A stretch of 64,000 nucleotides of DNA. It comes from an uncultured delta proteobacterium (GTDB lineage: Bacteria; Desulfobacterota; WTBG01; CAIYCZ01; CAIRTM01). Position numbers and translations under genes: made by a program. Under the pieces are notes generated by a model. It did no database searches, was not told the DNA's origin, and was given only the letters and a program-made list of their open reading frames with translations. Of this stretch, positions 18,855-53,168 are shown piece by piece; within the stretch, counting starts at the first letter, position 1, and the number at the start of each line of letters is the position of its first letter. The stretch spans positions 64,001-128,000 of the forward strand of contig CAWDSQ010000007.1 in NCBI GenBank assembly GCA_963804955.1. Direction: 5' to 3'.

Positions 18855-18892
18855 AAAAAAGCTCCCGTGCTACTACTTGCGCGTTCGACGCC

Positions 18893-20422: not shown

Positions 20423-20423
20423 C

Positions 20424-21920: not shown

Positions 21921-21979
21921 CAGGGATTTGGAAAATGAAAATTATTAGAAGCAATATTACTGGTTGTAGAACAAATAAA

Positions 21980-22879: not shown

Positions 22880-22907
22880 AGATGCGGCTTAACTTCGGAG
22901 AACAAAA

Positions 22908-25594: not shown

Positions 25595-25721
25595 ACAAAC
25601 CCCTGACAATAAAAAAGCTGTTGCAGATAGACCTCCAATGGTTGGCCCGTCTATGTGAGCGCTTTGCTTTGAAGTGGAATGCACCTCGCTTTAACTGGAG
25701 CTTTGTAAATAGCCCTAGAAA

Positions 25722-26363
25722 TTAAATCTCTTGTGCCGGATTACCAAAAACAGAAACCCCGCTTTTCACATGCCTGATCACAACACTTCCTGCGCCAATT
25801 TTGACATTATCATTGATTCGCCGTGATGGAATGACCAGGGCTTGTGTACCTATAAACACATTTTTGCCCACTACCACATGACCAGCAATATCGACATGGG
25901 GCATAAGCGATGAAAAATCGCCTATAGAAGCGTCATGGCCAATCTGAGTCCCAATATTTATTGTCACAAAATTACCAACATGAACATTTGTTGATATAAT
26001 GGAATTCGGCAATACAACAGTTCCCTCCCCTATGTGTGAACCATGTGCAATAATGCAACCAGGAGCAATAAACGTAATAAACTGCACCTTGTGTTTTATG
26101 GAATTAACAATTTGCTCTTTAAGCTCACAGTCCGATACGGCCAATATTACGCGGTCGTTCGTTTCAAAATTAAAATCTTCTTCAAAACCTGCAACTTGAT
26201 ATTTTGTAGGATACCCATTTAATATATCGGCATCAATATCCAAATACCCCTCAATTCCCCAGTCTCTATCGGCCGCAGGGACTAATTGAAGCCAGCTTTC
26301 TATTTCACGCCCAAAGCCACTTGCGCCGATTATAAATAACCTGAATTGCTTCTTTTCTATCAT
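25722..26363 (-). CDS. Sugar N/O-acyltransferase, NeuD/PglD hexapeptide family
   Basis: IIGASGFGRE, hexapeptide repeats, IGHD, IGAGSVV..GNPA. Confidence 0.9.
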   Translation of the reverse strand: MIEKKQFRLFIIGASGFGREIESWLQLVPAADRDWGIEGYLDIDADILNGYPTKYQVAGFEEDFNFETNDRVILAVSDCELKEQIVNSIKHKVQFITFIAPGCIIAHGSHIGEGTVVLPNSIISTNVHVGNFVTINIGTQIGHDASIGDFSSLMPHVDIAGHVVVGKNVFIGTQALVIPSRRINDNVKIGAGSVVIRHVKSGVSVFGNPAQEI

Positions 26364-26364
26364 G

Positions 26365-27126
26365 CTAATGTAATTTATATCCACCATCTATAATAAATTC
26401 ACTGCCGGTTATCCACCTTGCTGCATCAGATAGCAAAAATGCGCACATACCAGCTACATCACTGGGCGTACCCAACCCAAGAGGATGTGTATCTATAATT
26501 CCCTGTTTTGATTCTTCAGGAATAGTTTCAAAAAGCGCATTGGTCATCTCTGTTTGAACAATTGCAGGAAGTACGGCATTGACCCTTATTTTTTTTAAAG
26601 CCAATTCTAATGCCATAGCTCTTATTCCGCCAAGTAAAGCTGATTTTGAGGAGCAATATCCGACTTTTCCCTTCTCAGCTATTGCCGCCATAATTGATGA
26701 TATGAAGACAATGCTACCACCCTGATTTGAAATATTTTTTTTCTTTGTTAAAATTCGACATAATTCAAATCCGGCAATCACATTTACAGCAAATAACTTC
26801 TCATACTTTTGGGCATTCATCATTTGCAAAGGCACCGTCATTTCGATACCTGCAGCATGTATAAAACCATCAACCACACCAGTTTGCTTTATTGCGATAT
26901 CAACTAACCCTTCAATTCGATCGTACTGAGTAATATCAGCCACCATGCAATGATGCCCCGTACCCTCCAACTGATTCATAGCAGCATCAATCTTGTTCTT
27001 ATTGGTGCCCGACAAGATAATACGGGCCCCCAATTGACTGCATAAAACAGCGCATTGGCTGCCAATGCCCCCCGAGGCACCTGTAATAAGAATTGTTTTA
27101 TCTTCGAGAGTTACCAGCGACTTCAT
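26365..27126 (-). CDS. SDR oxidoreductase (FabG-like ketoacyl-ACP reductase)
   Basis: TGASGGIG, YCSSK, IRVNAVLP, ITGSEFIIDGG. Confidence 0.9.
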   Translation of the reverse strand: MKSLVTLEDKTILITGASGGIGSQCAVLCSQLGARIILSGTNKNKIDAAMNQLEGTGHHCMVADITQYDRIEGLVDIAIKQTGVVDGFIHAAGIEMTVPLQMMNAQKYEKLFAVNVIAGFELCRILTKKKNISNQGGSIVFISSIMAAIAEKGKVGYCSSKSALLGGIRAMALELALKKIRVNAVLPAIVQTEMTNALFETIPEESKQGIIDTHPLGLGTPSDVAGMCAFLLSDAARWITGSEFIIDGGYKLH

Positions 27127-27169
27127 TGCTTTTTATCTGACAGTTCCCAGTAAATGACACAGAAACGAG

Positions 27170-27391
27170 TTAGAACTCAACACTGCCCTCACCGATCAGT
27201 TTGATCAAATCCATTGGTGTATTGATGCTTTTAATATCAACCCCCTTGAATCTTTTCCCAAAGTTTTCATCGACAAAAGCAATAATAGACATGATGCCCA
27301 GAGAGTCGATGTCTAATTGAGTATCCAGGGTAATATCTGCAGTTAAATCAAGTGTTTCTTTTAAGCCATTTAAAAAGTCAGTATGTGTCAT
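27170..27391 (-). CDS. Acyl carrier protein
   Basis: 73 aa, acidic, IDSLGIMSIIAFVDENFG phosphopantetheine motif; lies between FabH and FabG. Confidence 0.88.
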   Translation of the reverse strand: MTHTDFLNGLKETLDLTADITLDTQLDIDSLGIMSIIAFVDENFGKRFKGVDIKSINTPMDLIKLIGEGSVEF

Positions 27392-27403
27392 AGTCTCATC
27401 GCA

Positions 27404-28402
27404 TTATAAGTTTATAATTACTCCTCCCCAGGATAAACCGACACCGAAACCTACCAGCAGTATCTTGCTGCCAGAAGTTATTTTTCCGTCCTTGATTAGG
27501 TTATGCAACGCGATAGGAAGGGTAGCGGAAACGGTATTACCTGTTTCCTGCAAGTTTATATAAAACTTATCTTCTGGTATTTTAGCTTTTCTGCGCAAAT
27601 AATCGAGCATGTATTTATTTGCCTGATGCAAAACATAATAATCAATTTTATCAGGCTCTACTCCATTTATATTTAATATCTCATCTATAGCTGCAGGAAT
27701 TTTTTCAATAGTAAAATTAAAAATTTCAGGACCATTCATATACAGAAAGTTGGCATTAGTTAAGTTATCCGTACCATAAATAAAGTCAGAAGCATGAGGA
27801 TCAAACTTATTACGAAAGCCTCCATTTTTCACAATCGCATTATCATATCCGTTCCCGTCAGTATAAAGAACAAATTTCCCGAAACGCGACTTCTCTGTTT
27901 TTCCGATGAGGCAGGCTGCCGCTGCATCGCCAAAGATCGATCGATTTGCTTTGTCTTTCGGATGTATATGCTTGGAATAGGTTTCAGACATTACCAGCAA
28001 AATACGATTTGTTACACCTGCAGACATAAGTCCTTCGGATATGGCGAGCCCATATACAAATCCAGAACAGCCCAAGTTGTAATCAAAAGCCATGCATTTT
28101 GCAGGCAGCCCTAGCCGGGACTGTAGAAGGCATGCACCGGAAGGTAAAAAGTACTCCGGACTTTGGGTGCACAATATAACAGCATCAACTTCTGACCTGT
28201 CTACTTGGGCTAACAGTTTACTGGCAGCCTTTTCAGCCATATCAAGGGCAGTTTCATTATCTGCAGCAATATGCCGTTGTCTGATGCCGATTTTAGTTGC
28301 AGTCTTAGTATCCTCAAAATCCGGAAACTCGATTTTAAGATCCTCGTTTGTCAGAACCTTCTCCGGAAGATAAATTTCTATTTTTTCTATACAAGCATGC
28401 AT
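27404..28402 (-). CDS. 3-oxoacyl-ACP synthase III (FabH-like)
   Basis: Catalytic triad NLGCSGF / HQAN / GNTVS; FGDAAAA; GFGVGLSWG. Confidence 0.93.
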   Translation of the reverse strand: MHACIEKIEIYLPEKVLTNEDLKIEFPDFEDTKTATKIGIRQRHIAADNETALDMAEKAASKLLAQVDRSEVDAVILCTQSPEYFLPSGACLLQSRLGLPAKCMAFDYNLGCSGFVYGLAISEGLMSAGVTNRILLVMSETYSKHIHPKDKANRSIFGDAAAACLIGKTEKSRFGKFVLYTDGNGYDNAIVKNGGFRNKFDPHASDFIYGTDNLTNANFLYMNGPEIFNFTIEKIPAAIDEILNINGVEPDKIDYYVLHQANKYMLDYLRRKAKIPEDKFYINLQETGNTVSATLPIALHNLIKDGKITSGSKILLVGFGVGLSWGGVIINL

Positions 28403-28558
28403 ATATTATTTTAATTATTGGTTAAAATTTAACAACTATTAAAAAACTCAGACTACTTAGATAAAAGTAAAGTTGCAGATTCTCAACAGACGAGATGCGC
28501 TTTTTCAGATGTCACAACAATGCAGCGATCCTACCCAACCTGCTATAATTTGCTTTTG

Positions 28559-28587
28559 AGCATATAAAGATTTTCAGGGTTAGTCAA
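28559..28587 (-). promoter_or_regulatory. Possible sigma-70 promoter of the FabH cassette
   Basis: Minus strand TTGACT-17 nt-TATGCT. Confidence 0.45.
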
Positions 28588-28689
28588 TAAATACTATGGT
28601 AACACTATGTTAGTTTAATTTCTGCTTAACGGACAGACCTATTAGCAGACTTACACCGCCAAGTTATCGCCCCCGCCGGGCCCACCATC

Positions 28690-28727
28690 ACAAAGAAGGC
28701 CGCTCCATTTGGAGCGGCCTTCTTTGT
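28690..28727 (-). terminator. Hairpin/terminator after the E3 gene
   Basis: 18-bp perfect inverted repeat ACAAAGAAGGCCGCTCCA / TGGAGCGGCCTTCTTTGT. Confidence 0.8.
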
Positions 28728-28750
28728 TTTTATAAAAAGCAAACTACGGG

Positions 28751-30487
28751 TTACTTCTTTTTGGGCATATGGATGGCTTTCTTGTCAACATCCAGCGCAG
28801 CTTCCATGATGCTCTCGGCAATCGTGGGATGCGCGTGAATGGTGTGGGCCATTTCTTCAAATGTTGCTTCCATCTGAATGGCAAGAGCTGCCTCATTGAT
28901 AAGGTCGGTGGCATGGGGTCCAAGTATTGCAACGCCCAGAACTTCGCCGTACTTCTTGTCGGCGATGATCTTCACCAGGCCGCCGGTCTCATTGATAACC
29001 AGTGCCTTGCCGCAGCCGACAAAGGGAAACCGGCCGATCTGCACGTCGCCGTACTTGGCCTTTGCTTCCTTCTCGGTCATGCCGACGCTTGCAACTTCCG
29101 GGCTGGTGTAGACAGCGCGGGGCACTGAGCGGTAGTTCATCTTGTGCTTTTTCCCCAGGACGTTCATTGCCGCTGTTTCACCTTCGGAGGTGGCTACATG
29201 GGCAAGCATGTAATTGCCGATGGCATCGCCGATGGCATAGATGCCGGCAACGCTGGTCTCAAGGTATTCATTGACCTTGATAAAGCCCTTTTCCATGGCA
29301 ACGCCGACCTTGTCAAGGCCGAGGCCTTCGGTATAGGGCGAACGGCCAACAGCCACGAGCACCAGATCGACTTCCTTCTGCTTGTCGCCGAAGGTCACGA
29401 GCTTCTTGCCGCCCTTGTCCTCGATCTTGCTGACGGACGTATTGGTAAGTATTTCAATGCCTTCCTTCTGTATCATAGCCGAGAATGACTTTGCGATCTC
29501 TTCATCTTCGGTCGGCAGAATCTGTGGCATCATTTCAACAACGGTCACTTCCACATCCATACGCTTCATCACCTGCGCGAACTCCATGCCGATAACGCCG
29601 CCGCCGATGATGAGAATGCTTTTCGGAAGCTTGTCAAGGGACAGTGCGCCGTCGGAATTGATAACGCCGGGAAGGTCAACGCCGGGGATGGGTACCTTGC
29701 TCGGCACGGAGCCGGTGGCGATGATGATCTTGTCGCACGCGATGGTCTCGCCGGTCTCTTTTACTTTCACGGTCTTGGCGTCAACGATTTCAGCCGTACC
29801 CTTGACAATCTTCATGCCGTGGCTTTTCAGAATGCCGCCGAGTCCGCCGACCAGCTGCTTCACAACAGTTGCCTTGCGTGCCATGACAGCAGGAAAGTCG
29901 ACGCTTGCGCCGGTCATGTTGATGCCGAATATTTTGGACTCTTTTGCCAGATGATACACTCCTGCCGACTGCAGGAGCGACTTGGTCGGGATGCAGCCGC
30001 GGTTGAGGCAGGTGCCGCCGAACTCATCCTTTTCAATAATGGTGACCTTGCCGCCGAGCTGGCAGATGCGGATTGCCGCAGGATAGCCGCCGGGGCCGCC
30101 GCCGATCACAACCACATGGGTGTCGGCAGCAGGGGCTGCCGGTGCTGCTGCGGCAGCGGGTGCGGCGGCAGCTGCCGGTGCTGCTGCGGCGGGGGTTGCG
30201 GCTGCTGCAGCAGGTGCTGCGCCGCCTGCGGCAACGCCGGCCAATTCGCCCTTGTCTGCCGCTATTATAGCGATAAGCTCAGCTACGGGGACTTCGCCTT
30301 CCGCGGGAACAACGATATGGAGATAGCCGTTAGCCGGGCTTTCCACTTCATAGGTGATTTTTTCTGTTTCAACAACAAGCAGAATCTCGCCCTGCTTTAC
30401 TTCTTCGCCTTCGGCCTTTTTCCACTCGGCAATCTTGCCGGTTTCCATGGTCAGCCCGAGCTTGGGCATGGTTAAATTGGTTGCCAT
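28751..30487 (-). CDS. lpdA: Dihydrolipoyl dehydrogenase (E3) with N-terminal lipoyl domain
   Basis: ETEKIT lipoyl motif, Ala/Pro linker, GGGPGGY, GGTCLNRGCIPTK, IHAHPTIAE. Confidence 0.96.
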   Translation of the reverse strand: MATNLTMPKLGLTMETGKIAEWKKAEGEEVKQGEILLVVETEKITYEVESPANGYLHIVVPAEGEVPVAELIAIIAADKGELAGVAAGGAAPAAAAATPAAAAPAAAAAPAAAAAPAAPAADTHVVVIGGGPGGYPAAIRICQLGGKVTIIEKDEFGGTCLNRGCIPTKSLLQSAGVYHLAKESKIFGINMTGASVDFPAVMARKATVVKQLVGGLGGILKSHGMKIVKGTAEIVDAKTVKVKETGETIACDKIIIATGSVPSKVPIPGVDLPGVINSDGALSLDKLPKSILIIGGGVIGMEFAQVMKRMDVEVTVVEMMPQILPTEDEEIAKSFSAMIQKEGIEILTNTSVSKIEDKGGKKLVTFGDKQKEVDLVLVAVGRSPYTEGLGLDKVGVAMEKGFIKVNEYLETSVAGIYAIGDAIGNYMLAHVATSEGETAAMNVLGKKHKMNYRSVPRAVYTSPEVASVGMTEKEAKAKYGDVQIGRFPFVGCGKALVINETGGLVKIIADKKYGEVLGVAILGPHATDLINEAALAIQMEATFEEMAHTIHAHPTIAESIMEAALDVDKKAIHMPKKK

Positions 30488-40156: not shown

Positions 40157-40660
40157 GTGAGGCACAGTCAGCAAAAAATCGAAGAAATAAAACGCCATAA
40201 AAACAAACCCGAGCAGCGCTTCCTGTGCGACCTTGCCCTGCGCGAGCAGGACCATATCGTTCTGGTCTATCATGCTTCATCTGCAGGCCGCATCGCCGAC
40301 ATCGACATCGCCCCCGGCTCCACAACCATTGCCCACTACTGGCAGGCAGGCGGTTATGTTCTCTGGCGCATGTTTGCAGCCGACCAAACGCTTGTCGGAA
40401 CGCTCTTTCATATCTGCGCTAATACTGATATACAGGAAACTAGCGTCAGCTATGATGATCTGATTTTAGATGTCTGGATTACCACGCAAGGGGTTGCGCG
40501 CGTGCTTGATGAGGATGAATTGGCCGATGCAATCAAGGCAGGGGTGGTCACAAATAACGAGCAGAGTTGTATTGAAAGACAGAGACAGATTATTCTTTCT
40601 GACTACGCTGCCATAATAGATCGAATACGGGATATTGAATCAGCTATTTTAAACCGGTAG
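40157..40660 (+). CDS. DUF402-like protein
   Basis: YDDLILDVWI..VLDEDELADA acidic motif. Confidence 0.72.
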   Translation: MRHSQQKIEEIKRHKNKPEQRFLCDLALREQDHIVLVYHASSAGRIADIDIAPGSTTIAHYWQAGGYVLWRMFAADQTLVGTLFHICANTDIQETSVSYDDLILDVWITTQGVARVLDEDELADAIKAGVVTNNEQSCIERQRQIILSDYAAIIDRIRDIESAILNR

Positions 40661-40728
40661 GGTGGATTTGCCAAGCACGTCCACAGTGTTTTCAAAATTT
40701 CGTGGACACACTTCGTTATTTTACCTAC
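40657..40728. repeat. Degenerate REP doublet
   Basis: GTAGGGTGG..GTCCAC / GTGGAC..CCTAC inverted arrangement. Confidence 0.5.
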
Positions 40729-40769
40729 GACAACCATGAACATTATTTCCCTTAGAAAGGACTGCTGCC

Positions 40770-41588
40770 ATGACTGGCGATACGCTGGGCGGCTCTACAG
40801 AATTTGAAGTCGTAAAAATCAGGGACGGTTCTGCCGAAACTTTCACGCAGGCCGTGGCGACCGAGGTGCCGTGCACAATCGTCATCAACGGCAAAGAGGC
40901 TGTTACCACCCTGATGACGCCCACTCACTTTAAGGAATTTGCCGTGGGGCATCTTTTTACCGCAGGCATTATCACGCGGGCCGAAGACATAGTCAGCTGC
41001 AGCTGCGACGAGATCAGGTGGCGCCTTGATGTGGAGACGCGGCGCGAGGTTGATCTTGATCTTTTAGGCAAGCGGGTCTACACCAGCGGCTGCGGCAAAG
41101 GGGTCATGTATGCCAATGTCATCGAGCTTTCGTCGCGCCACCCGCTGCCTTCAGGGTTCACGGTGCAGGCAGGCCATCTGAAAGCGGCCATACAGTGGCT
41201 CCTGTCAAGCTCGACACTTTTCCAGGCGACCCGCGGCGTGCACTCCGTGGCGCTGGGCCTGGGTGGCGCGCTGCCTGACATGCTTATCGACGATATCGGC
41301 CGCCACAATGCCGTAGACAAAATTATCGGGTACGGCCTGCTGCACGGCCTTGATTTTTCGCGCAGCATACTGCTCAGCACCGGCAGGACCTCCTCGGAGA
41401 TACTGCACAAGGCAAAGCGGGCGGAGATACCCATAGTGCTCTCACGCGGAGCGCCGACACACCAGACAATTCTTCTCTCGCGAGACATGGGCGTTACGGT
41501 AGCCGGCTTCAAACGGTCGGGAGACATTGTCGTCTACTCAAACTGGCAGCGTGTGCTTACCGATAGCGGCATCCCTTCAATGGAATGA
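40770..41588 (+). CDS. fdhD: Formate dehydrogenase accessory sulfurtransferase
   Basis: YTSGCG, TRGVHS, DIGRHNAVDKIIG, STGRTSSEI. Confidence 0.93.
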   Translation: MTGDTLGGSTEFEVVKIRDGSAETFTQAVATEVPCTIVINGKEAVTTLMTPTHFKEFAVGHLFTAGIITRAEDIVSCSCDEIRWRLDVETRREVDLDLLGKRVYTSGCGKGVMYANVIELSSRHPLPSGFTVQAGHLKAAIQWLLSSSTLFQATRGVHSVALGLGGALPDMLIDDIGRHNAVDKIIGYGLLHGLDFSRSILLSTGRTSSEILHKAKRAEIPIVLSRGAPTHQTILLSRDMGVTVAGFKRSGDIVVYSNWQRVLTDSGIPSME

Positions 41589-41703
41589 ATAAAAAATTTT
41601 TGGGTCGGTTCGCTAATTGCCCTGGGGTAAAACGTATACCAACTGATTAGATGGTGCGCGATGCGCACCCTTTCTTTCAAACCCGCAATTCGAGAGGAGC
41701 TTT

Positions 41704-43100
41704 ATGATCGCAACTTTAACATTCATGGGAGCAACAGGCACGGTTACCGGGTCGCGGTATCTTCTGAAAGCCGAAGGTAAAAAATACCTCATCGACTGCG
41801 GCCTGTTTCAGGGCTTGAAAGAAATACGGCAGCGCAACTGGGAACCCTTCCCTGTGCCGCCAAATGAAATCGACCGTGTACTGCTGACCCATGCCCATAT
41901 TGACCACTGCGGCTTTCTGCCACGCATTGTGCAGCAGGGTTTCAAAGGGCCGGTGCACTGCACCTTTCCCACGGCAGACATCTGCAGCCTCGTCCTCAGA
42001 GACAGCGCCTACCTTCAGGAAGAAGACGCGCGGTACGCAAACAAAAAAGGCTTCTCAAAGCACAAGCCCGCCCTGCCCCTCTATACTGTGCAGGATGCCG
42101 AAGATGCCATCAGCCTCTTTAAACCAGTACACTACGGCCAGGACCTCTTTTCTCAAATACCATGCGCGTCAAATTCAAGGACGCGGGGCATATTCTCGGC
42201 TCATCGTTTATCGACGTGAAGCTCATGCAGGCAGACAAGCCGACCCGCATCCTCTTCAGCGGTGACATCGGCAGCCCCGACCGCCCCATACTGCGCGACC
42301 CCACGCAGGTATTTGAAGTGGACTATCTCGTGCTTGAATCGACCTACGGCGACCGCACCCATGACCACGGCGACGACGCCCGCCGGGACGGGCTGGCCCG
42401 TATTATCAATGAAAGCGTAAAACGCGGCGGCATACTTATCATTCCGTCGTTTGCCGTGGAGCGCTCGCAGGAGCTGCTCTACTATATCCGAGAACTTGAG
42501 GACCAGAAACGCATTCCCGTGCTGCCGGTCTATCTTGATTCGCCCATGGCAGTGTCAGCCACTGAGATCTTTGAAAAATGGAAGCTTGTCTACGATATGG
42601 AAGCACGAATGCAGGAGCTCGACGGCAGGCATATCATGCAGACACAGATGCTGCATGTCGTGCGCGATGCCTCTGAGTCAAAGCTGCTGCACAATGTGAA
42701 GGGCCCGGCCATATTCATTTCCGCCAGCGGCATGCTTGAAGGCGGCCGCATACTGCATCACCTTGAGCACCGCCTTCCCTTCGCGGAAAACACTGTCCTC
42801 TTTGTCGGGTATCAGGCCGAGGGCACGCGCGGCAGGTCGATCCTCAACGGCAGCCCGACCATTAAGATTCACGGGCAGATGATTCCCGTGCACGCCAAAA
42901 TCGAGAATATCACCGGTTTCTCCGGCCATGCCGATTACAAGGAGATCCTTGCCTGGCTCATGGGCTTTAACCGGCCGCCGGTTAAAACCTTTATCGTCCA
43001 CGGTGAGCCTGATGCTGCTCAAGCCATGGCTAAAAACATCAGAACAACACTTGGCTGGGAGGTTGAAATACCGGAGTTCATGCAAACAGTTCAACTGTAG
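41704..43100 (+). CDS. Metallo-beta-lactamase / beta-CASP ribonuclease-like protein; frameshift in T run ~42150
   Basis: GTVTGS, DCGLFQG, THAHIDH, AGHILGS, SGDIG, ESTYGDR, FSGHAD, VHGE. One added T joins the two ORFs. Confidence 0.9.
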
Positions 43101-43121
43101 GAAGATAAAAACAATAATCAG

Positions 43122-43156
43122 AAGGCCGGGCTGCTGCACACAGCCCGGCCTTTTTT
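43122..43156 (+). terminator. Intrinsic terminator
   Basis: AAGGCCGGGCTG-7 nt-CAGCCCGGCCTT plus T run. Confidence 0.8.
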
Positions 43157-43230
43157 ATTGATGCAACTAAATCGTGACACGAACAAAAAACATACATAGC
43201 AGGCTGGAGTAAAACGGCTGCGTTGCCATC

Positions 43231-44106
43231 TCACTTGGCTTTTCGGCGCTCGTACATTTTGCAGATATCCGACAGTGCGGCAGCCATGGCGGGATTTGTC
43301 TTCATAATCTCCACGGTTTCATCAGGAGATTCCAGAAGCTTAAGATAGGCTGCCTCAACGGTATTTGTTTTCATCCGCAGAACCCCGAACAGCATATCGG
43401 CAATATCCACGCCTCTGATATTGGCATAAAAATTAGAGCTGTAATACAAGTCACACATCAGGCACAGCCGGGCTATTGCAGTGCCGGGCTTATGATGCTG
43501 GTGAATATATTTCGGGTTGAGCACATAAATTCTAATTTTTTTGATGCTGTGACAGGTTAAAAAATACATGTACCGGTTAAAATCCTTACCCTCGCCGAAA
43601 ACCTTTTCGGCAAGTTCACGCTGAGCCTTATTGAGGCCGCCGCTCTTAACGTTCTGCCAGTAGTAGCGCGTATCGATTTCAAAATAGGCAAATTCAGGAT
43701 CAAATTCTTTAAGTTTCAGAGAAAAAAGCCTGGTTCTATGCGTATGCCCCGTTTTAACCGAGTCGTAAACTTTTTTTACTTCATCTTTGCTGAGCCGGTA
43801 GTTTTCATTAGCCAGCATCTGCCGGCATGCTTCTTCCAGATTGTTGAAAATGGGGTTTGCTTCACGCCTGCCAAAATACAAAAAACCCTCTTTGCCGAGC
43901 TTTGTTTTTTCAACCGCATACATGCCGAAGTCTGCCGTGAAATAAAAATAATTCAAAAATGCAGGATCCGTGATGTTCTTATAGTCCATAGCCCGCTTGG
44001 CTGCTATGTCGGCAGATGTTGAAATAAAATCAGCATCAAAAAGGGCTGCATCCTTTTGAAATATCCCCCTGTTTTTCTTATTGGTAATAAGTTTAATTAT
44101 ATCCAT
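43231..44106 (-). CDS. Hypothetical protein resembling DPANN-archaeal C-type-lectin-fold (DGR variable protein-like) family
   Basis: Clean 291-aa ORF. Motifs FTADF..LYFGRRE.NPIF.N, YFEIDT, RIYVLNP.Y, AR.C....YSSNFYANIRGVD....FGV. The ORF is solid; the family call is from recalled similarity only. Confidence 0.6.
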   Translation of the reverse strand: MDIIKLITNKKNRGIFQKDAALFDADFISTSADIAAKRAMDYKNITDPAFLNYFYFTADFGMYAVEKTKLGKEGFLYFGRREANPIFNNLEEACRQMLANENYRLSKDEVKKVYDSVKTGHTHRTRLFSLKLKEFDPEFAYFEIDTRYYWQNVKSGGLNKAQRELAEKVFGEGKDFNRYMYFLTCHSIKKIRIYVLNPKYIHQHHKPGTAIARLCLMCDLYYSSNFYANIRGVDIADMLFGVLRMKTNTVEAAYLKLLESPDETVEIMKTNPAMAAALSDICKMYERRKAK

Positions 44107-44145
44107 GTCTTTTCACAAAAAAGCTGTTGTCTGGTTATAGTGCAT

Positions 44146-44234
44146 GGAGGGGTTGCCCAATCGTACCGGGCAGAGGCCAATGCTTGTGATGCCCGAATAA
44201 GGCATGCATCAATGCGCAGGCTAAATCCCCCTCC
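44146..44234 (-). ncRNA. Candidate structured leader RNA (three-way junction)
   Basis: Closing stem GGAGGGG/CCCCTCC encloses a long irregular hairpin (TGATGC..GCATCA) and TGCCCG-GTACGAT-TGGGCA. GC-rich island in an AT-rich leader. Confidence 0.3.
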
Positions 44235-44319
44235 CTCCAAAAAAAACTATTTGATCAACGTATACCGATTTAAGCAATACAACCAATCAACAAATCAATA
44301 TTTACCAGATAATAGTACA

Positions 44320-44337
44320 TTACAAATATTGTGCCAA
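44320..44337 (-). promoter_or_regulatory. Sigma-54-like promoter
   Basis: Minus strand TTGGCACAATATTTGT (-12 GT instead of GC). IHF-like TTTCGATTAGTTA at ~44365 and TGT-N10-ACA at 44408-44423. Confidence 0.5.
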
Positions 44338-44734
44338 TTTGTTTAAATAAATTAATCAAGCATTTTCGATTAGTTAAAAACATGCTGGAGTTAGTAACAA
44401 CTAAAAATGTGTCTCATGATACATAAATGCACAAGCAAAAGCGTATCAAAACCTTACTGTCCCTGTCTGTTTATATAATTGGATGGCCGTAGGGTTGAAG
44501 CTAAAAAAAGAGTGGCAAAGGCAATCGTTGAGGCTCTTAAATACACATCTCCTGCTTAAAAAAGCGGCACAGGCAGCCCAGCGGCGGATTTGGATGTGAT
44601 AGGGGTTTTCGATTTTTTAGTCGAGATCTGCGGAATTAAACTTACTCAATAATTGTGAGGGTAGAAGGTGATTTTATAGCAGCAAAGTTCTTCAACCAAA
44701 TTAAACGGCTTGAGTCTAGCCGGCTCTTCTTTGC

Positions 44735-45271
44735 TCACAACCACCAGAACAGGCATGGCGCCAGGAAAACAAACGAGCCGAGGATGGCTGCCATGTAAAA
44801 AAACAAAAGGGGTATACACACCAGAAACTGCGGAAATAATTCCGGACTAAAAATCATGTTCGGGATCAATAAAACCATATAGCCAAAGATAACAAAGGCC
44901 TTGTGCATATTTTGCTCGAGCAGCATAATCGCTTGATTGCACTGAGCCTCAAATACTTCCACCTGTGCCAATCGATCCTGAACCGCGCGGACCCGCCCGC
45001 GTGCACCATATGCCTGGTCGGCAGTAATATGCATGGCCTGCAGATTTCCGGACCTGATAAGTTGTACGAGATCGCGCAGGCTTTTTTTGGCATCTGCCTG
45101 TAAACTCAGGGCAACATCAGCAGTGCAGGTGGTATCCCGTTCCGCACAGGCGGCATAGGCCTCCAGAAGCGTTATACTGTCAGAGCTGATATCATAAAGC
45201 GTTTTCTCCTGTGCAGGCGATGCAGACGGAAGCGCCAGAACGCACAAAAACAGCAGCATCATTTTTTTCAT
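44735..45271 (-). CDS. Array protein B1: exported helical protein with C-terminal hydrophobic hairpin ending PCLFWWL
   Basis: Signal peptide ending SPA-QEKTL; paralog of 46717-47256; SD AAGGGG. Confidence 0.82.
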   Translation of the reverse strand: MKKMMLLFLCVLALPSASPAQEKTLYDISSDSITLLEAYAACAERDTTCTADVALSLQADAKKSLRDLVQLIRSGNLQAMHITADQAYGARGRVRAVQDRLAQVEVFEAQCNQAIMLLEQNMHKAFVIFGYMVLLIPNMIFSPELFPQFLVCIPLLFFYMAAILGSFVFLAPCLFWWL

Positions 45272-45327
45272 AAATTGTACCCCCTTGAAAACAAGCGATT
45301 GCATTTCGGCTCTTCATCAGTCCAAAA

Positions 45328-46623
45328 TCACATTAATGCAGCCGGAACTGGCAGCAAGGTCACGTTATCTGTAGACCATTGCTCTTTCCAGGCAATCACG
45401 CTGCCATCTTCAGCCAGTGCCGAATACCCGTCTATAAATTCAGAATTGCTATATTCTAAAAAGCCGTGGTTGTCATCCTCACCGGCATCAAAGGCGTTCA
45501 CGGCAATAATGTTGTTAAACTCATGATGAAAAACCAGAACCCCCGAATGCACGCCGCCATACCATTGATAATATCCCCATACAACTATTGACCCATCCTG
45601 CTTCAGCGCAATATTATTGCTGTCTCCCGAAGCAGCCGCTGTTGCCCGAAGCCTTCCTGCGCGAATCGGAAGAGGGACATCCCTCCACCCGGATATATAA
45701 TTTATATGCCTCTGCACGACATTCCCGTCAGACTGCACCGCCACATCGAAATTGCTCCCCAGGGATATTGAAACTGCATCATTAACAGGGGTCATATAGC
45801 TGTGGGGCCATTTCGCTATCGTGCCGTCCGCCTTCACCGCCGCGCATCGACCTTCTCCTGCGCCGATGCTGACCACATCGCTGATAGCGGCAGGAACATG
45901 CATCGGCTCTTCATTCATAAAACCCCACCCGACAAGATTGCCGTCTGCTTTTAAAGCAAGAAAATGATGATAGCCGGCGGCAACCGCCACCACATCAGCA
46001 AGCCCGTCAGGAACAGGAAGCTCCTGAGGGCAGGAAAGCGCATCACATGACCACACCACCACCGTCCCGTTGTCTTTTAGCGCAACGCTGTAGTCATTGC
46101 TTTTTGCTATGGCGGTTACATTTCTGAGCCCCTCAGGGGTTTCTAGTAGTTTGCCGTCTTCAAAGCTCCATTCCACAACCGTACCGTCGGCCTTGAGCGC
46201 AAGGCTGCCATGAGTAGTTGAAGCAAGCGCTATGGCTTTTTCAGTCTTGAAAACCCGGAATTTTTTGGCCACTTCCTTCATTGGCCCTTGTTCAACAGCC
46301 GCAGTAATGGTGATCAATTTCTCGCCTGGATTTTCAGGGTTCACCTGCCCAATCCAGCGCCAGGTGCCGTTATCGGTTGCCAGTAGTTCCTGTTCTGCCT
46401 GGCCGCCGATTTCGCTCAAATCAGCCGTAACCGTAACCGGCGCAAGAGCCTCTGGCGCCTGCCGCCAGATCACCCTCACATCGCAGGTCTGCCCAACCAA
46501 CAGACGCCCCATAAGAAATATGCGATTGCGCTGCATCGAGAGGTCAAGGGGCGGCTTGCATCCTGCCGCTGCAAGCAGCCCTAGTACCGCCAGTCCGATA
46601 CATAATTTTTGTATTTTTTTCAT
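45328..46623 (-). CDS. Array protein A1: lipoprotein with RCC1-like beta-propeller repeats
   Basis: Lipobox LAAAGC; VTVTADLSEIGG domain; repeats ALKADGTVVEW, ALKDNGTVVVW, ALKADGNLVGW, ALKQDGSIVVW. Confidence 0.88.
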   Translation of the reverse strand: MKKIQKLCIGLAVLGLLAAAGCKPPLDLSMQRNRIFLMGRLLVGQTCDVRVIWRQAPEALAPVTVTADLSEIGGQAEQELLATDNGTWRWIGQVNPENPGEKLITITAAVEQGPMKEVAKKFRVFKTEKAIALASTTHGSLALKADGTVVEWSFEDGKLLETPEGLRNVTAIAKSNDYSVALKDNGTVVVWSCDALSCPQELPVPDGLADVVAVAAGYHHFLALKADGNLVGWGFMNEEPMHVPAAISDVVSIGAGEGRCAAVKADGTIAKWPHSYMTPVNDAVSISLGSNFDVAVQSDGNVVQRHINYISGWRDVPLPIRAGRLRATAAASGDSNNIALKQDGSIVVWGYYQWYGGVHSGVLVFHHEFNNIIAVNAFDAGEDDNHGFLEYSNSEFIDGYSALAEDGSVIAWKEQWSTDNVTLLPVPAALM

Positions 46624-46648
46624 TCATTACCCTTTTCAATAATATTCA

Positions 46649-46676
46649 GCAGGGGCATGGCATGCCGTGCCACTAC
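46649..46676. repeat. REP-like palindrome between cassette units
   Basis: Minus strand GTAGTGGCACGGCATGCCATGCCCCTGC. Confidence 0.6.
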
Positions 46677-46716
46677 AACTGATTTACCTCAACCATTCCA
46701 ATACAGCCAATCCCGC

Positions 46717-47256
46717 TCACAGCCACCAGAAAAGGCACGTTGGCGATAAAATAATCGTCATGAGGAAGGACCAAAGGGTTGAGCCTATAAGAACCATAAG
46801 TTCGATCATAAATCTTACAGGGCCTTCATATAAAATAACAAGATAAAGCAACAGGGGGTTCAAAAAGCTCGCCAGATACTGCAAATTACCGAGCAGTTGA
46901 ACAAAATAATGAATTCCCGCATTGCAGCTCTCATCGGCAATTGCAATATGCGCAAGCTGCTCCCGCACAACCCTGGCGCGAACGCTCAGCGCCGAAGCCT
47001 GACCGGGGGTGAGCATTATGCGGCTGCGGTCGCCCGACTTTACCAGCCCCACAAAATCCCGCAGGCCGTTTACAGCTCCTGCCTTTATGGCCAGCATATC
47101 TTCGGAGGTGCAGGCGCTCTCCCGGTCCGCACAGGCTGCGTACGCCTCAACCAGAAAAAACATGTCCTGGCTGATATCGTTGAGTGTTTTTTCCTGTGCC
47201 CGGACTGCGGCAGGCAGCAGCGCGATACATAAGACCAATAGTATGGTTTTTTTCAT
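46717..47256 (-). CDS. Array protein B2 (paralog of B1)
   Basis: AQEKTL.DIS, EAYAACA.R...CT, LRD.V.L..SG, CN, and TCLFWWL; SD GGAGG. Confidence 0.85.
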   Translation of the reverse strand: MKKTILLVLCIALLPAAVRAQEKTLNDISQDMFFLVEAYAACADRESACTSEDMLAIKAGAVNGLRDFVGLVKSGDRSRIMLTPGQASALSVRARVVREQLAHIAIADESCNAGIHYFVQLLGNLQYLASFLNPLLLYLVILYEGPVRFMIELMVLIGSTLWSFLMTIILSPTCLFWWL

Positions 47257-47284
47257 TTCACACCTCCCCTGGGTGCATTCTTTA

Positions 47285-48579
47285 TCATTGTAATTCCTCC
47301 GGCACTGTTAGCTCATGCTGGCCATCCCACCACTCTTCCCATGCCAGAACGCTGCCGTCCGCGGTCAGGGCCATGCTGTTGGGCGGCGTAAAACCGCACA
47401 GGCCATCGGCTATGGCAATTATGTTTGCCAGCCTTTCATGGCTGACATAATACAAACCCGCATACTGGGTCGCGCGCCACCAGAGCATGACCGTGCCGTC
47501 TTCCTGTAGCGCCATCCAGTGACTCCCACCAGCAACTACAGCTTTTGCCCTCAAGTCGCCTGCCCGGCGAGGCAGGCTGTCACCCCGGCCGCCCCACATG
47601 ACTGCGCTGCCATTGTCTGTTAAGGCAAGAGCATTCTCCCACGCATCAATAGCCACCACGTTTTCAAGGCCTTCCGGCGCATCACAATAGTCCTCCGGAT
47701 ACGCCCAGAGATCCTCAGTTCTTACTGCAAGCCATGAAGCTACCGTACCATCGGCTTTCAGCGCATGTGCGCAGGCATTACCCGCCGCCAGTGCAACAAC
47801 ATCGGTGAGCCCTTGCGGTATGTTCAGCCCGAGGCTATCATTATCGCCCCAGGCTGCTACTGTGCCATCAGCTTTCAGCGCAAGGTTATATATGGCTGCG
47901 GCGGCTATGGCTACTATATCCGTAAGATTATCCGGCACATCGAAACTTTCATCACTGCTATTGCCCCATGCCGCTACCGTTCCGTCGGCTTTCAGCGCAA
48001 GGTTATGATAATAACCTGCAGCTATGGCCACAACATTGCCGAGACCTTCAGAGGCATAAAACGCCTCTTGATTCTGATCACATTTCACATACGAACCAGC
48101 CGTCCCGACCTGCCAGTCAACCACGGTGCCGTCAGCTTTCAATGCAAGGCTTTGGGCCGCACCGCAATCAATAGCTACTGCCTTTGCTGCCGCATTATGC
48201 ACCTGCACCTGCTTTTCGCTCGGGTATTCTTCATCATCCGCGTCCAGCGCGGTAATGCGCAGCGTCTTCTCGCCGAACGCCGGGGCGCAACCTTGCCGCT
48301 CCACCGCCAGATGCTTTGGTTATCTGCGGTCAGTTCCTGTGCCGCATCTCCGCCGATTTCACTTAAATCCGCCGTCACCGTTACCGGCACGGGGTCATTA
48401 GCCCCGGCGCGCCAAATCAGGCGCACATCGCAGGCCTGGCCCGACAGAAGCCGGCCGAGCAGAAATATGCGGCTGCGGTGCAACGACAGCGGCTCTTGTG
48501 GCTCAGGTTTTTTACATGCTGTTGCCGCCAGCAGTCCCAGCGCCGCAAAAGATACCAATACTTTTTGTAATGTCTTCAT
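47285..48579 (-). CDS. Array protein A2: RCC1-repeat lipoprotein, 1-bp deletion ~48282
   Basis: Lipobox LAATAC; VTVTADLSEIGG. ORFs 48175-48603 and 47285-48304 join into an A1 paralog ending VPEELQ. Confidence 0.82.
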
Positions 48580-48649
48580 GTATACCCCCGTACAGTTTGT
48601 CATAAAAGCATTTTAAGAGCATCCAGTCGTGTCCCAATGCTGTGCGCCC

Positions 48650-48708
48650 GCTCATAACCACCAGAACAGGCATGGCGCCAGGAAAACAAACGAGCCGAGG
48701 ATGGCTGC
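48650..48708. repeat. 59-bp direct repeat of 44733-44791 (B1 3' end)
   Basis: 58/59 identical by direct comparison; the single difference is a synonymous Leu codon change (TTG/TTA). Confidence 0.92.
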
Positions 48709-48997
48709 TATAATATTTCCCCATTAGCACCTCCTCTGTGTGATTGGATGTGAAAGTATTTTTACACTACATTCTCTGCATGCTCAGACCGTGCTGTGCT
48801 TTGGTCATGCACAATACTGCTCTGAGCCCCTACAGCAAAGATGCCGGTTTCTCTACAACCCTACATGGCAATACAAGCTCCCGGATGCCCACGGGAAGAG
48901 TAATACCAAGCCAACGCATAGGCACAATACATATAGCCCCTATCAATCATGCCACTCTAGCCATTCACGCTCACACATAAAAAAAATCGGGGCACCG

Positions 48998-49068
48998 GAA
49001 CCGCACAGGTCTGCCCTACAAGCAGCCCCAGCGCAACACTACCATCAAATTTTTTATACTGTTTTTAT
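48998..49068 (-). pseudogene. Decayed N-terminal remnant of an A-type lipoprotein gene
   Basis: SD, then ATA-AAA-ACA-GTA-TAA-AAA-ATT, and ALGLL fused directly to VGQTC.V. Confidence 0.55.
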
Positions 49069-49128
49069 GCATTCCCCTTTACACGGGTCCATTCATCATG
49101 AATACAATGCGCCGGGCCCCCGCCGCTT

Positions 49129-50340
49129 TCAATACTCATTATTCATTACCGGATTTTTTTGCAGTTCAGTAATATCAAGCTTATACAAAATATCCCAGCC
49201 GAAGGAGCCCGGTTCCCCCCCTATTCCGAAAAGCCACAAATTTGAGCCGGATAAAGCAATACTGTAAGGAGTTGAAAGCGGGCCATTTCCGGTTCTCCCG
49301 CCGGTGGGCGGATATATGAGACTTACGATATTTCCATCCATATCAATCTTATAAAGCATCTTTCCATATATACTGTCGGTAACCCAGAAGTATGTTCCGT
49401 CAAAAGCGATGCCATAGGGATTATCAAAAGGCAGGGGAATTGCCGTGTCGCAGAAACCATTCATATCGCATTTATTGATGCTCCTGGCTTGTCCGGCCAC
49501 GTACCAAACAGTACCATCCTTCACGAAAATACCCCTGGGGTCGCCGGGCGCACGAAAGGACGCAACCGGTTCGCCTGTTTTGGTAAACTTGTAAATGCTT
49601 TCGGAATGGAATTCGGTATACCAGATAAAGTCCCCATCTGCCGCAATACCGCGCACCTCATGATTCTCAGTCAGGGGGTAGCGTAACGATCGGTTCGGGC
49701 AAAAAATAACCAGCGTCCTCGGGAGCAGCAATGCCTGCTATAATCCGTTTTCCTGTGGAATTGTCGATGCCGAGCGTCCACAGCACCCCACCGTCAAAGG
49801 TTCCCACCGGAGTTACTGATTTCCAGTGCTGCACAACAGGCAGACTGGCAAGGGGCGGAGACCAGCCCATATCTGTTTCCTGGAGAAAAGGAATTTTACG
49901 ATTAAATATGGGTCGCAGGCGGACAAAGTCCGGCAGGAATCCGGCCATTCCCACAGCTTTCATCGTCAGGGCGGGCTCTTTCAGATTTACTCTACCCCAG
50001 ACGAAATACAGCGCGCTCCCTATGAGAGATTTAGGATTTTGACTAGAAACCCGTAATAGCGCATGTCAGCGTTCAAATCTGACCTGCTTATACTAAATCC
50101 ATACACCTCATCGAATACATACGTGCTGGTTGACCGCCAGTACATTTTGCCGCCGTAAAAGCCGACTTCCTCCCTGGCATACCATTCACTGTAATAAGAC
50201 CCATCATAAAAGCCCCAGAGCAAACCGGTGAGCCCATCGCTGGAATATGACCAGTCTGCGGCATCGGCAGGGTTGAATGGCAGAAGTACAACAAGAGTGA
50301 GGCAGGATAAAAGAATTATTTTTGCGCGTGTTGTAAGCAT
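49129..50340 (-). CDS. Secreted protein with C-terminal beta-propeller repeats (NHL/Vgb-like); two frameshifts (~50025, ~49678)
   Basis: Signal peptide ending ADA-A; RGIAADGDFIWYTE, PRGIFVKDGTVW, PYGIAFDGTYFWVTD, PYSIALSGSNLW. Three consecutive ORFs join. Confidence 0.65.
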
Positions 50341-50558
50341 GTAGTCCCCTTTTTAATTTTACCCCGAAGAGGCATCCGCCGCAGCGGACATCGTGAAACT
50401 ATAACTGCGTCACCTCAATCGTTCCGGAACAGACAATCGTTCTCACAGCCGGAAAAAAAGAACCGGAAAAACAAGGCTCGGCAGCAAACAAGGTGCAGCA
50501 AATAAAGATTTTAACGTAGTGCATGCCCCCCATTACAAGCTGCAATACAAAAATACGG

Positions 50559-51056
50559 CTAGGCTATAACCGTATGCATCAACTGCAGCGCAAGCGCGAC
50601 CAGCATTCTTGCGCTATTGCATGACCCATCATGCATTTCTATTTTTGAAAACCGGCCTCGTACTTCTTCGGACCAAAAACGCAGGGCTTTCTCTTCTTCG
50701 GCAGTTAAAACCAGGGCACGCATATCGCCCGACTTTATAAGACTCTTAAGATCCTGAAGGGTCTTTTCAGCATTGGCTTTTAATGCCTTGCCATCCTCTT
50801 CAGTACAGGCAATATCATGATGTGCGCATGCCGTAAGCGTCTCTGCAAGGATAAGCGTCCGGGCGCTGATCTCGTACAGCCTGTTCTCATGCGCTTGCAT
50901 TTTGCAACTCACCCGCACCCGGCAGGACGTGTTCGCATAAACCGGCTCGGTGAAAGACAGTTCGTTTATCCGCGGCCAGGGCTGATCTTTAAACACCGCA
51001 GCTGTCAAAAGCCCCAACGCTGCAACTGTCAGTAAAATTTTATGAACGGTTTTCAC
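50559..51056 (-). CDS. Chimeric A/B array protein (A-type N-terminus fused to B-type body), possibly truncated
   Basis: SD GAGGAG + GTG; KTVHKILL..ALGLLTAAVFK..SCRVRV, then HENRLYEIS..ACAHHDIACT..LQDL..LIKSGD..SCN. Confidence 0.6.
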   Translation of the reverse strand: MKTVHKILLTVAALGLLTAAVFKDQPWPRINELSFTEPVYANTSCRVRVSCKMQAHENRLYEISARTLILAETLTACAHHDIACTEEDGKALKANAEKTLQDLKSLIKSGDMRALVLTAEEEKALRFWSEEVRGRFSKIEMHDGSCNSARMLVALALQLMHTVIA

Positions 51057-51696
51057 GCTCTCCTCACTGTATGCTTTACTGCCCAGGGGTATTCGCCGGG
51101 GCTGAGACCGCACCCTGCAACTGCAAACATTGCTGCATAAATATATCTTTAGCCGTATTACTTTGAGTAAAGAAGTGCTGTTCCCGTTTTCCCCTTGCAC
51201 GTTCCCCCTGCAAGGGCAGGCAAAAAACTAAACTAACACTATTCAAATTAACGCAAGACGCGTACCAAAAAAATTAACTTGCTCTGAAAAAATCCAGAAC
51301 ATAATAAAAAGTATTGAAAAACAGATGGTTGAAAAAAATAAAAAAATAGCGGCTGCTTTGGCTCCATAAGCGGTAAAATACAATTGGCTGATTTCAGCCA
51401 GCAAAAGGGGTTGAAATAAATTTCATTGGTTGAATCCAGCCAATTACAGGTGATATGTATCGCCGGGGTTGACGGATTGAACTGCACATAACATGCCTGT
51501 TCCCTGCAATGCTTCAGATATGCCTGCCCGAATAATTTCTTGAGAAAAATGCGGCGCAAAGGTATATTTTGTGGAGAAACAGCCCAGGGTAATTCCCGGC
51601 TGACAGGAGCAAACTAAAAAAAAGAGCTCACGGGGGCCTTTGAGGGCCAACCCAGCTTCTTGAGCTTTATGCACAATATCATGACAGGACGATTGC

Positions 51697-52110
51697 ATGC
51701 CGATCTATGAATACTACTGCACGCCGTGCCACACCATTTTCAGCTTTCTGTCACGCACAGCAAACGTAAGCAGGCAGCCCGCCTGCCCTCGCTGCGGCGG
51801 TGAGATTCGCAAACAGGTTTCATCATTTGCCTTCTCCCAAAAGATGAGGGGCACTGAAAGTTTGCCCTTTTCGACACAGCAGGCAGAAGAAGGCGTTAAA
51901 AAGCTCAAAAGCGAAATCGACCGACTGAAGTCAGAGGAAAGCCCGCAGCGCGCCGCGCAGTTCAAAAAAAATTTCGAACGCTGGTCGGGCGTGAAGCTCG
52001 ACCACTCGGCTGGCTCCCTGCGCGGCGTTGAGCTTGCGCCTGAAAAAGGAGAGCCCCCTGAAGAAGAAGGCCCGCCTCCGGAGCGCGATGATACGATTTA
52101 TGATTTATAA
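51697..52110 (+). CDS. FmdB-family zinc-ribbon protein
   Basis: MPIYEYYCTPC..CPRCG..SSFAF. Confidence 0.88.
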   Translation: MPIYEYYCTPCHTIFSFLSRTANVSRQPACPRCGGEIRKQVSSFAFSQKMRGTESLPFSTQQAEEGVKKLKSEIDRLKSEESPQRAAQFKKNFERWSGVKLDHSAGSLRGVELAPEKGEPPEEEGPPPERDDTIYDL

Positions 52111-52118
52111 ACAAGCAG

Positions 52119-52310
52119 TTGGATTGGTTAATCTGGTTATATTAGTTTAATTGGTTTTATTGGTTGATTTGTTGAAACCGGGCTTAAATCATCTATGCTC
52201 ACACGGACGATCTTCAGAGACATTGCTGGTTGTCAATTGATGGTTGTTCATTCATCTAACGAGCATTGACCTTTGACTATTGACCACTGACCAATAAACC
52301 ATTGACCATT
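52119..52310. repeat. Short degenerate tandem repeats (ATTGGTT-containing ~9-mers, then CATTGAC 7-mers)
   Basis: 52119-52170 and 52264-52310, read directly. Confidence 0.65.
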
Positions 52311-52316
52311 CCCTGC

Positions 52317-53168
52317 ATGATGACCCTTGACCAGCTTCGCACAAACAAAGTGGGCCTGGTTCTCTCATCAGGCTTTTTCGGCTTCTACGCGCACGCGGGC
52401 TGCCTGTGCGCCCTTTCCGAAATGGGCATTCATCCGATGGGATATGCCGGCAGCAGCGCCGGCGCCATCATAGCCGCAATGGGGGCCTCGGGCATGGCCT
52501 GCGAAAAAATCCGCGAGCGCCTGTTCCCCCTGAAAAAAAAAGACTTCTGGGACCCTGAGCCATGGTACCGCGTGGCGCTGCACGGACTTCGCCTGTTTCG
52601 CGGGTGGCATGGCTACCTGAACGGCGACAGGTTCGCAACACTGCTGCAGCGCATGCTGCCCGTAGCGACTTTTGAAGAGCTGCGCTGCCCCTGCGTTATA
52701 ACTACCATTAATTTAAACACTAAAAAACGCGAGTGGCGCACTGCCGGAAATCTTGCTGATGCGGTGCAGGCATCCTGCACCGTGCCCTGGCTGTTCAAGT
52801 TCAAAATCATGGACGACGCCCTGCATGTTGACGGAGGATTTGCCGACAAGGCGCCGGTCGAGGCACTTGCCCGGCACATGCAGCCCGATGTGCTCATCGT
52901 GCACTACCTGAAATCAAGCAACCTGCGCGGCGATGATCAGTCGTTCCTCAACCGGCGATTCTCAGCCGGCAAGGCCAAAACTCTTGCCGTCACCATCGGC
53001 CGCCACGAGCACTACCTCACGCAGAAGCGGCTTGTCGAGCAGATGGGCATCCCTGTGCTTGAAATAGCCCCCGAGCTTCCTTCTGTCTCCCCTGCTCATA
53101 TTGACCGCGGCCCTGCGGCTTTTGAGCAAGCACGACAGCAGACACTGCTGTTATTGAACAGCCTATAA
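52317..53168 (+). CDS. Patatin-like phospholipase
   Basis: LVLSSGFFGFYAHAG, GSSAG nucleophile elbow, DGG motif. Confidence 0.9.
   Translation: MMTLDQLRTNKVGLVLSSGFFGFYAHAGCLCALSEMGIHPMGYAGSSAGAIIAAMGASGMACEKIRERLFPLKKKDFWDPEPWYRVALHGLRLFRGWHGYLNGDRFATLLQRMLPVATFEELRCPCVITTINLNTKKREWRTAGNLADAVQASCTVPWLFKFKIMDDALHVDGGFADKAPVEALARHMQPDVLIVHYLKSSNLRGDDQSFLNRRFSAGKAKTLAVTIGRHEHYLTQKRLVEQMGIPVLEIAPELPSVSPAHIDRGPAAFEQARQQTLLLLNSL

Follow-up and report, generated by a model that had tools for sequence, protein, structure and literature searches.

How a gene of the kind that archaea diversify with diversity-generating retroelements (DGRs) comes to stand in a bacterial chromosome is the question raised by this locus. 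The gene lies at 43231..44106 on the minus strand of the window, by which we mean the whole 64,000-nucleotide stretch of DNA analyzed here, part of contig C7 in the metagenome-assembled genome (MAG) of an uncultured delta proteobacterium of sulfate-reducer type (GCA_963804955.1). It starts with ATG and encodes a protein of 291 amino acids (aa), which we describe as AvpA-like, with a predicted C-type-lectin (CLec) fold, and as a bacterial representative, without a DGR, of a family of archaeal DGR targets. In a DGR, codons of a target gene are overwritten with copies of a template repeat made by a reverse transcriptase (RT), whose errors are adenine-specific. The evidence set out below indicates that an archaeal DGR target was probably captured by the bacterium and then fixed in one variant.

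A sequence-only reading of this DNA had singled out the segment AIARLCLMCDLYYSSNFYANIRGVDIADMLFGV and four upstream motifs (TADF, LYFGRRE.NPIF.N, YFEIDT and RIYVLNP.Y) as resembling protein families of DPANN archaea. The segment corresponds to residues 210-242 of the checked 291-aa translation, which contains all four motifs as claimed, and these match conserved columns of the family alignment. The protein looks cytoplasmic, as had been proposed, with a Kyte-Doolittle(19) maximum of 0.82, a non-hydrophobic N-terminus and no transmembrane or signal-like segment, while the helical C-terminal tail put at ~50 aa in that reading corresponds to the last ~45 residues (43234..43368, minus strand; codons 247-291), for which model secondary structure predicts three helices at residues 250-290. 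Ahead of the tail lies what we interpret as a fossil variable region (43393..43455, minus strand; codons 218-238), in which 15 positions that are hypervariable in the archaeal relatives are frozen as C D. Y Y S. N. Y. N I. G. D I A D M, with dots at the other positions. It is followed by LFGV (43381..43392, minus strand; codons and alignment columns 239-242), a motif that, judged by its position, is the putative counterpart of the beta5 motif of AvpA. Searches of Pfam, PHROGs, PADLOC and PDB sequences with the 291-aa protein gave no significant match, an NCBIfam search gave only a PurS match at chance level, and the sole match in a profile search of the PDB was a designed helical repeat protein (4D2) that we judged uninformative.

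Relatives were readily found in protein collections. A word-indexed search returned 12 proteins, 11 of them at 63-91% identity, including one named as a Proteobacteria MAG protein, and the twelfth at 40%. An exhaustive phmmer search recovered 356 representative clusters at E<=1e-3 (196 at E<=1e-10), mostly of 225-300 aa and aligned over approximately residues 45-245 of the window protein; the members found in archaeal DGR cassettes share 33-47% identity with it, at phmmer E values of 1e-13 to 1e-34. The expectation that these relatives would be archaeal and DPANN-like was borne out by a family member named as Candidatus Woesearchaeota in the profile search and by archaeal marker genes above curated cut-offs on the contigs of two loci, namely aRF1, aIF5A and prefoldin beta on L006 and the RFC small subunit on L044. 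A PRK13764-type ATPase likewise scores above its curated cut-off on L040, L045 and L048 bear weaker archaeal-type matches, and the archaeal-locus contigs have a GC content of 33-44%. The nearest ESM-Atlas clusters are from Woesearchaeota/Nanobdellota, with scores of 0.88-0.89 (<0.9) that we treat as a lead only. Scanning of a viral contig collection revealed no relative of the family.

The pattern of variation within the family is that of DGR targets. Across 142 distant members, columns 218, 219, 221-223, 225, 227, 229, 230, 232 and 234-238 (numbered as in the window protein) each have an entropy above 3 bits, and they are interleaved with near-fixed columns (L217, F220, S224, F226, A228, R231, V233, L239, R240, G241 and V242). 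The residues N, D, G, S and Y fill 65% of the cells in the 15 hypervariable columns versus 31% in the core, while K, E, Q, M and W, none of which can be obtained from AAY codons, make up 5.9% versus 22%. In an archaeal cluster of at least 90% identity, all 14 variable columns fall inside the variable region, residues 198-220 of 278. We found 50 metagenome loci of the family and located the variable region by pattern in 34, of which 17 have a second copy of it downstream. Two of these 17 were set aside, L017 as a tandem paralogue and L008 as noisy; the other 15 represent 14 distinct loci, as L019 and L020 are identical in sequence. Their template repeats are 91-98 nt long and mostly lie 300-450 nt downstream of the target (~1.2 kb in L025), and of the 204 substitutions counted over the 14 distinct loci, 199 are at sites where the downstream copy has an adenine. 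An RVT_1 reverse transcriptase directly follows the repeat in all 15 loci tested and is whole in 12. Adenine-specific pairs of template and variable region, adjoining RTs and variation confined to the C-terminal segment thus uphold the proposal that this segment represents, in the relatives, a variable region of DGR type: the archaeal members of the family are genuine DGR targets.

Several of these archaeal loci have features of their own. The RT is split into two open reading frames (ORFs) in L010:1435-2662, L012:2321-3347 and L031:1066-2299, where the mismatches between template and variable region are still adenine-specific; decaying elements, sequencing errors and frameshifting are all possible causes. 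Two family genes stand in tandem before one RT in L017:1448-3150 and L025:8001-9706, and what looked like a repeat in L017 is the second paralogue's own variable region, for which only 8 of 24 mismatches are at adenines. At L043:4790-14098 the DGR cassette sits beside a VirB4-like conjugal-transfer ATPase (CD1110 family, at the cut-off) and a XerA-like tyrosine recombinase, which suggests a DGR carried by an integrated mobile element. The archaeal members at L045 (8001-8705 of a 1.24-Mb contig) and L044 (8001-8837 of a 654-kb contig) have variable regions outside the search pattern; the L045 segment is rich in asparagine (NNIYNNAGFIAYDNCVNALNH) and resembles a template-near state. An NCBIfam scan of the ORFs flanking L044 and L045, made with no Pfam RVT_1 check, turned up no RT.

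Structural comparison places the window protein with a characterized member of this class of targets. AvpA (5IOO) is its only strong structural match, at 11-12% identity, and the model carries AvpA-type inserts and can be superposed on 5IOO, showing an AvpA-type CLec fold at the level of prediction, as the sequence-only reading had anticipated. According to the passages of the structure paper drawn on here (Handa et al. 2016, PMC5006420), AvpA is a Nanoarchaeota DGR variable protein of 256 aa with an internal variable region at residues 181-203, which closes with RFxGV, an invariant beta5 motif specified by the initiation-of-mutagenic-homing (IMH) element, and is followed by a 46-residue extension that is predicted to be helical; the same passages state the function of AvpA-like proteins as unknown in 2016. 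As far as those passages describe AvpA, it and the window protein share an organization as a single globular domain of ~250-290 aa with no signal sequence detected, an internal variable region near the C-terminus (residues 218-238 of 291 in the window protein), a closing beta5 motif (RFxGV in AvpA, LRGV in this family and LFGV at 239-242 of the window protein) and a C-terminal helical extension (46 residues in AvpA, helices at 250-290 here). The AvpA motifs GxxVVVYAH and HPxxxPFxG given there were unrecognised in the window protein in a comparison made without residue-level structural alignment. The two also differ in circumstance: AvpA is archaeal and diversified by an adjoining DGR, whereas the window gene is bacterial, has neither RT nor template repeat, and its variable site is frozen.

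The comparison with the archaeal cassettes (L006-L048) is closer. Their targets resemble the window protein in length, conserved motifs and C-terminal tail, and the variable-region scaffold L217, S224, F226, A228, R231, G241 and V242 is common to both, while the window protein has L and F in place of the family scaffold residues F220 and R240. In the cassettes the target gene is followed by the 91-98 nt template repeat and then the RT; the window gene is accompanied by none of these, and the position of the template repeat is taken instead by a terminator and a convergent bacterial gene. The element, which resembles an intrinsic terminator, is a bidirectional hairpin (43120..43154) with a 14-pair stem and T runs on both strands; it separates the gene from the convergent beta-CASP gene, is shared by the two, and leaves no space for a template repeat or RT downstream. 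Mtd, TvpA and TaqVP, the bacterial and phage CLec-fold DGR variable proteins of the formylglycine-generating enzyme (FGE) subclass, have no sequence similarity to the window protein, and in the consulted part of the structure paper their variable region is described as ~2 times longer and placed at the extreme C-terminus (PMC5006420).

In contrast to its archaeal relatives, the bacterial gene is not being diversified. The assembly (4.26 Mb in 36 contigs, 87% complete, 2.16% contamination) contains no RVT_1 match, while control genomes gave matches, and outside the gene itself 43357-43494 recurs only in a second gene copy on contig C31. A local search found no template-like repeat near the gene, although the same method found the template repeats of the 15 archaeal loci; nor is there a template-like second copy in the sister genomes G402-G405, each of which holds one copy of this DNA. 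The statement that neither RT nor template repeat is present therefore holds locally and extends to the whole assembly, within its 87% completeness. Nonsynonymous differences from three congeneric genomes are no commoner in codons 212-242 than elsewhere: 4/31 versus 51/214 against L004, 2/31 versus 18/214 against L003, and 1/31 versus 19/214 against L005. Nine of the 15 former variable positions are invariant across 12 proteins at 63-91% identity, and a bacterial cluster of 14 full-length proteins at >=90% identity has only 3 of its 38 variable columns in the 34-residue window equivalent to the variable region. Among contigs of three independent studies, which as contigs cannot reveal rare variants, the sole difference in codons 218-238 is a synonymous one at 43435 (S224).

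The second copy on the 16-kb contig C31 is 99% identical to the gene and qualifies its description as stand-alone, which is accurate for the locus, where it forms a single-gene unit, and inaccurate for the assembly as a whole. The two copies differ at 19 sites, 17 of them synonymous, and these are scattered and not adenine-specific. We rejected the C31 copy as a template repeat, given that a whole 12-kb segment is colinear and that 17/19 of the differences in the gene are synonymous. C31 matches C7:104171-116513 (40171-52513 of the window) at 86-97% identity, with C31:7394-11239 unmatched, and appears from these comparisons to stem from a second strain that was co-assembled or from a segmental duplication, in either case under purifying selection.

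The codons of the frozen site retain a trace of a DGR past. NNY codons occupy 14 of the 15 variable positions but 55% of positions elsewhere in the gene (Fisher p ~0.002; all five bacterial gene copies), an excess that is what AAY template codons would leave behind. The residues at the frozen positions, C/D/Y/S/N/I/G/A, are the set produced from AAY template codons.

Where the gene occurs and how it relates to its homologs both bear on its origin. Profile searches detected it in three of the four remaining congeneric species but gave no match in 16 genomes from other genera of the order, and 400 other genomes of the phylum gave only a weak 46-residue match (E 2.8e-5). Its GC content is 0.429 versus 0.524 for the genome, within the lowest 4.6% of equal-sized windows. 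In a maximum-likelihood tree (quick search, LG+G4, 99 rows, midpoint rooting, no outgroup), all 12 bacterial rows group in a single clade (SH-aLRT 100), whose stem, at 0.68, is the longest internal branch, and the DGR-linked archaeal rows are scattered over all major branches. Under midpoint rooting the bacterial clade is nested within the family, next to P0073.

A number of observations weigh against capture and fixation, and they are best considered together with the other explanations that they touch. The family might originally have been non-diversified, with the bacterial gene inherited vertically or from other bacteria and the archaeal DGRs recruiting the family later. Such a history would suit the unrooted tree, in which the long bacterial stem could hold the root, and the existence of members that have no DGR: one is absent for 3 of 22 AvpA homologues in the portion of the structure paper drawn on (PMC5006420), and 17 of our 34 loci showed no template repeat, several of them ending near the gene and some having long flanks. 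P0073, the nearest non-bacterial row, has K, Q and E in the equivalent of the variable region, which would be compatible with a non-DGR intermediate. No more than a handful of the 356 clusters have a taxonomic assignment, with DPANN named for one and any further DPANN assignment only suggested, by Atlas scores <0.9; a search with the family profile (149 sequences) at E<=10 misses the 5IOO sequence, so the likeness to AvpA is at the level of the fold only; and the NNY signal follows in part from the residues present (C, D, Y, N). We nevertheless consider this history unlikely in view of the narrow distribution (of the 21 order-level and 401 phylum-level genomes, only those of one genus carry the gene), the low GC content, and the 14 of 15 NNY codons at exactly the positions that DGRs vary, with residues of the AAY-derived set. 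With a weak backbone (SH-aLRT 83-92, with many open forks) and no outgroup, the tree is no proof of which way the gene moved; movement from archaea to bacteria would be the most economical reading. The inter-domain transfer advanced by the sequence-only reading thus gains support from the narrow distribution, the low GC content and the nested clade, while its direction stays unproven.

That reading had also offered the gene as a remote DGR target, whose codons 218-238 would still be diversified by an RT and template repeat elsewhere, either unassembled or on another replicon. An assembly only 87% complete leaves room for an unassembled RT, and remote targets do occur in some DGRs, with seven scattered target genes described in the consulted part of one report (PMC5758913). 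Two sister genomes contain RT matches, four in all. The only one to be classified, L068, has a GIIM domain and belongs with the group II intron RTs; L070 is cut short by the end of its contig, and no class was assigned to L069 or L071. DGR RTs are not distinguished from other RTs by PADLOC. We regard active remote diversification as very improbable because no RVT_1 match or template-like copy was found in the assembly, nor such a copy in G402-G405, and because little or no difference is seen at the former variable positions between strains, between species, within the 14-member cluster or among the environmental contigs of three studies. Of the two alternatives proposed, it is the domesticated, fixed variant that these data favor. 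An archaeal fragment misjoined to a bacterial contig during assembly or binning is a more skeptical explanation, to which the contamination of the MAG, the duplicated 16-kb contig and the atypical GC content of the gene lend some color. We give it almost no credence, since the gene is embedded in a 560-kb contig and flanked by bacterial genes, with those for ArgRS, DUF402, FdhD and a beta-CASP RNase to one side and those for RCC1-repeat proteins to the other; its synteny with the beta-CASP, FdhD, DUF402 and ArgRS genes recurs in three other, independently assembled MAGs, whose junctions, like those of C31, are the same; and a 1001-nt contig of another study covers the whole gene plus both ends. 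Contig continuity, which the earlier reading had asked to be confirmed, is therefore secure.

Capture and fixation would imply the following course of events. The ancestral gene would have been a diversified DGR target of DPANN type, in which ~15 binding-site codons were mutated, and it would have crossed between domains most likely at the base of one genus of Desulfobacterota, its template repeat and RT either not transferred or lost afterwards. Purifying selection would since have kept one variant of the binding site. By analogy, the product would be a cytoplasmic single-domain binder with a fixed specificity for one ligand, its putative binding surface being formed by the 15 frozen positions, grouped about the invariant aromatic residue F226, which may correspond to F185 as described for AvpA in the structure paper (PMC5006420). 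Transcription would be monocistronic and from the gene's own promoter, possibly a sigma-54-dependent one. A more speculative extension, which we put forward tentatively and think rather unlikely, is that a DGR-evolved site was captured across domains, stripped of its mutator and kept in one specificity under host (possibly sigma-54) control, and that it may be the mark of physical contact between DPANN archaea and this bacterial genus, in which the frozen site would recognize a molecule of importance to the contact. If true, this would be a natural exaptation of a DGR-selected receptor by another domain of life.

The locus is of use beyond its own history. The search for ligands of AvpA-like DGR targets is hindered by a binding site that differs in every copy, and a frozen variant kept across species (63-91% identity) offers a fixed version for expression and ligand screening. 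It would document the movement of a DGR target between domains without its retroelement, and it serves as a worked example for spotting fossil DGR targets by the pattern of scaffold and variable columns, the NNY excess and the loss of template repeat and RT, an approach transferable to other orphan genes. Paul et al. 2017 (Nat Microbiol) reportedly surveyed the DGR targets of DPANN archaea and the candidate phyla radiation (CPR) and may already list the archaeal family. In the literature searched outside that survey, including the accessible portions of PMC5006420, PMC4372165, PMC8144416 and PMC5758913, we found no report of a bacterial DGR-less member of the family. Overall, the analysis supports the reading of the locus as an AvpA-type DGR target that probably crossed into a bacterial genus and was fixed there.

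The sequences upstream of the gene contain several candidate signals for its expression. A sigma-54-like -24/-12 element, TGGCACAATATTTGT, lies at 44322..44336 (minus strand), ~215 nt upstream of the ATG; its TGGCAC-N5-TTGT core is conserved in C31, L003 and L005, and thus in 4/4 upstream sequences, even though the flanks of L005 diverge, and rpoN is present in the genome. Three points tell against its assignment: the element has T for C at -12 (GT instead of GC, the consensus being TGGCAC-N5-TTGC), it is the one sigma-54-like match in the window where 0.45 would be expected by chance, and a sigma-70-like TTGGCA-17-TATTAT overlaps it at 44337..44309 (minus strand). The host sigma-54 promoter proposed in the sequence-only reading is plausible but unproven, backed by motif conservation and rpoN, while statistically weak and overlapped by a sigma-70-like match. 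An inverted repeat, GATAC-N20-GTATC, in a partly conserved block at 44418..44447 (minus strand), ~97 nt upstream of the -24 element, may be a candidate activator-binding site, a suggestion made by inference only.

Within the ~215-nt leader (44107-44325, minus strand) blocks of sequence are conserved, among them a small hairpin, AUGCCC...GGGCAU, that four sequences share. Little covariation was seen in this hairpin (RNAalifold, with only four sequences, too few to judge), and no Rfam family matches the leader.

Elsewhere in the window, the gene for the beta-CASP/metallo-beta-lactamase RNase (41704-43100, plus strand) is split into two overlapping ORFs of 171 and 312 aa with a change of frame at ~42160-42220, while its L005 orthologue is a single 445-aa ORF; the split is either a frameshift or an assembly indel. 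On the other side of the gene, in 44735-48304 (minus strand), genes for RCC1-repeat proteins of 431 and 339 aa are each followed by one for a small protein (189 and 179 aa), giving two pairs in tandem. The small proteins are paralogous, have no Pfam match, and combine a signal-like N-terminus with a hydrophobic C-terminus; this is the stretch that differs most among C7, C31 and the sister MAGs. Farther away, 13000-29000 forms a low-GC island of ~16 kb, at 0.29-0.43 versus ~0.52.
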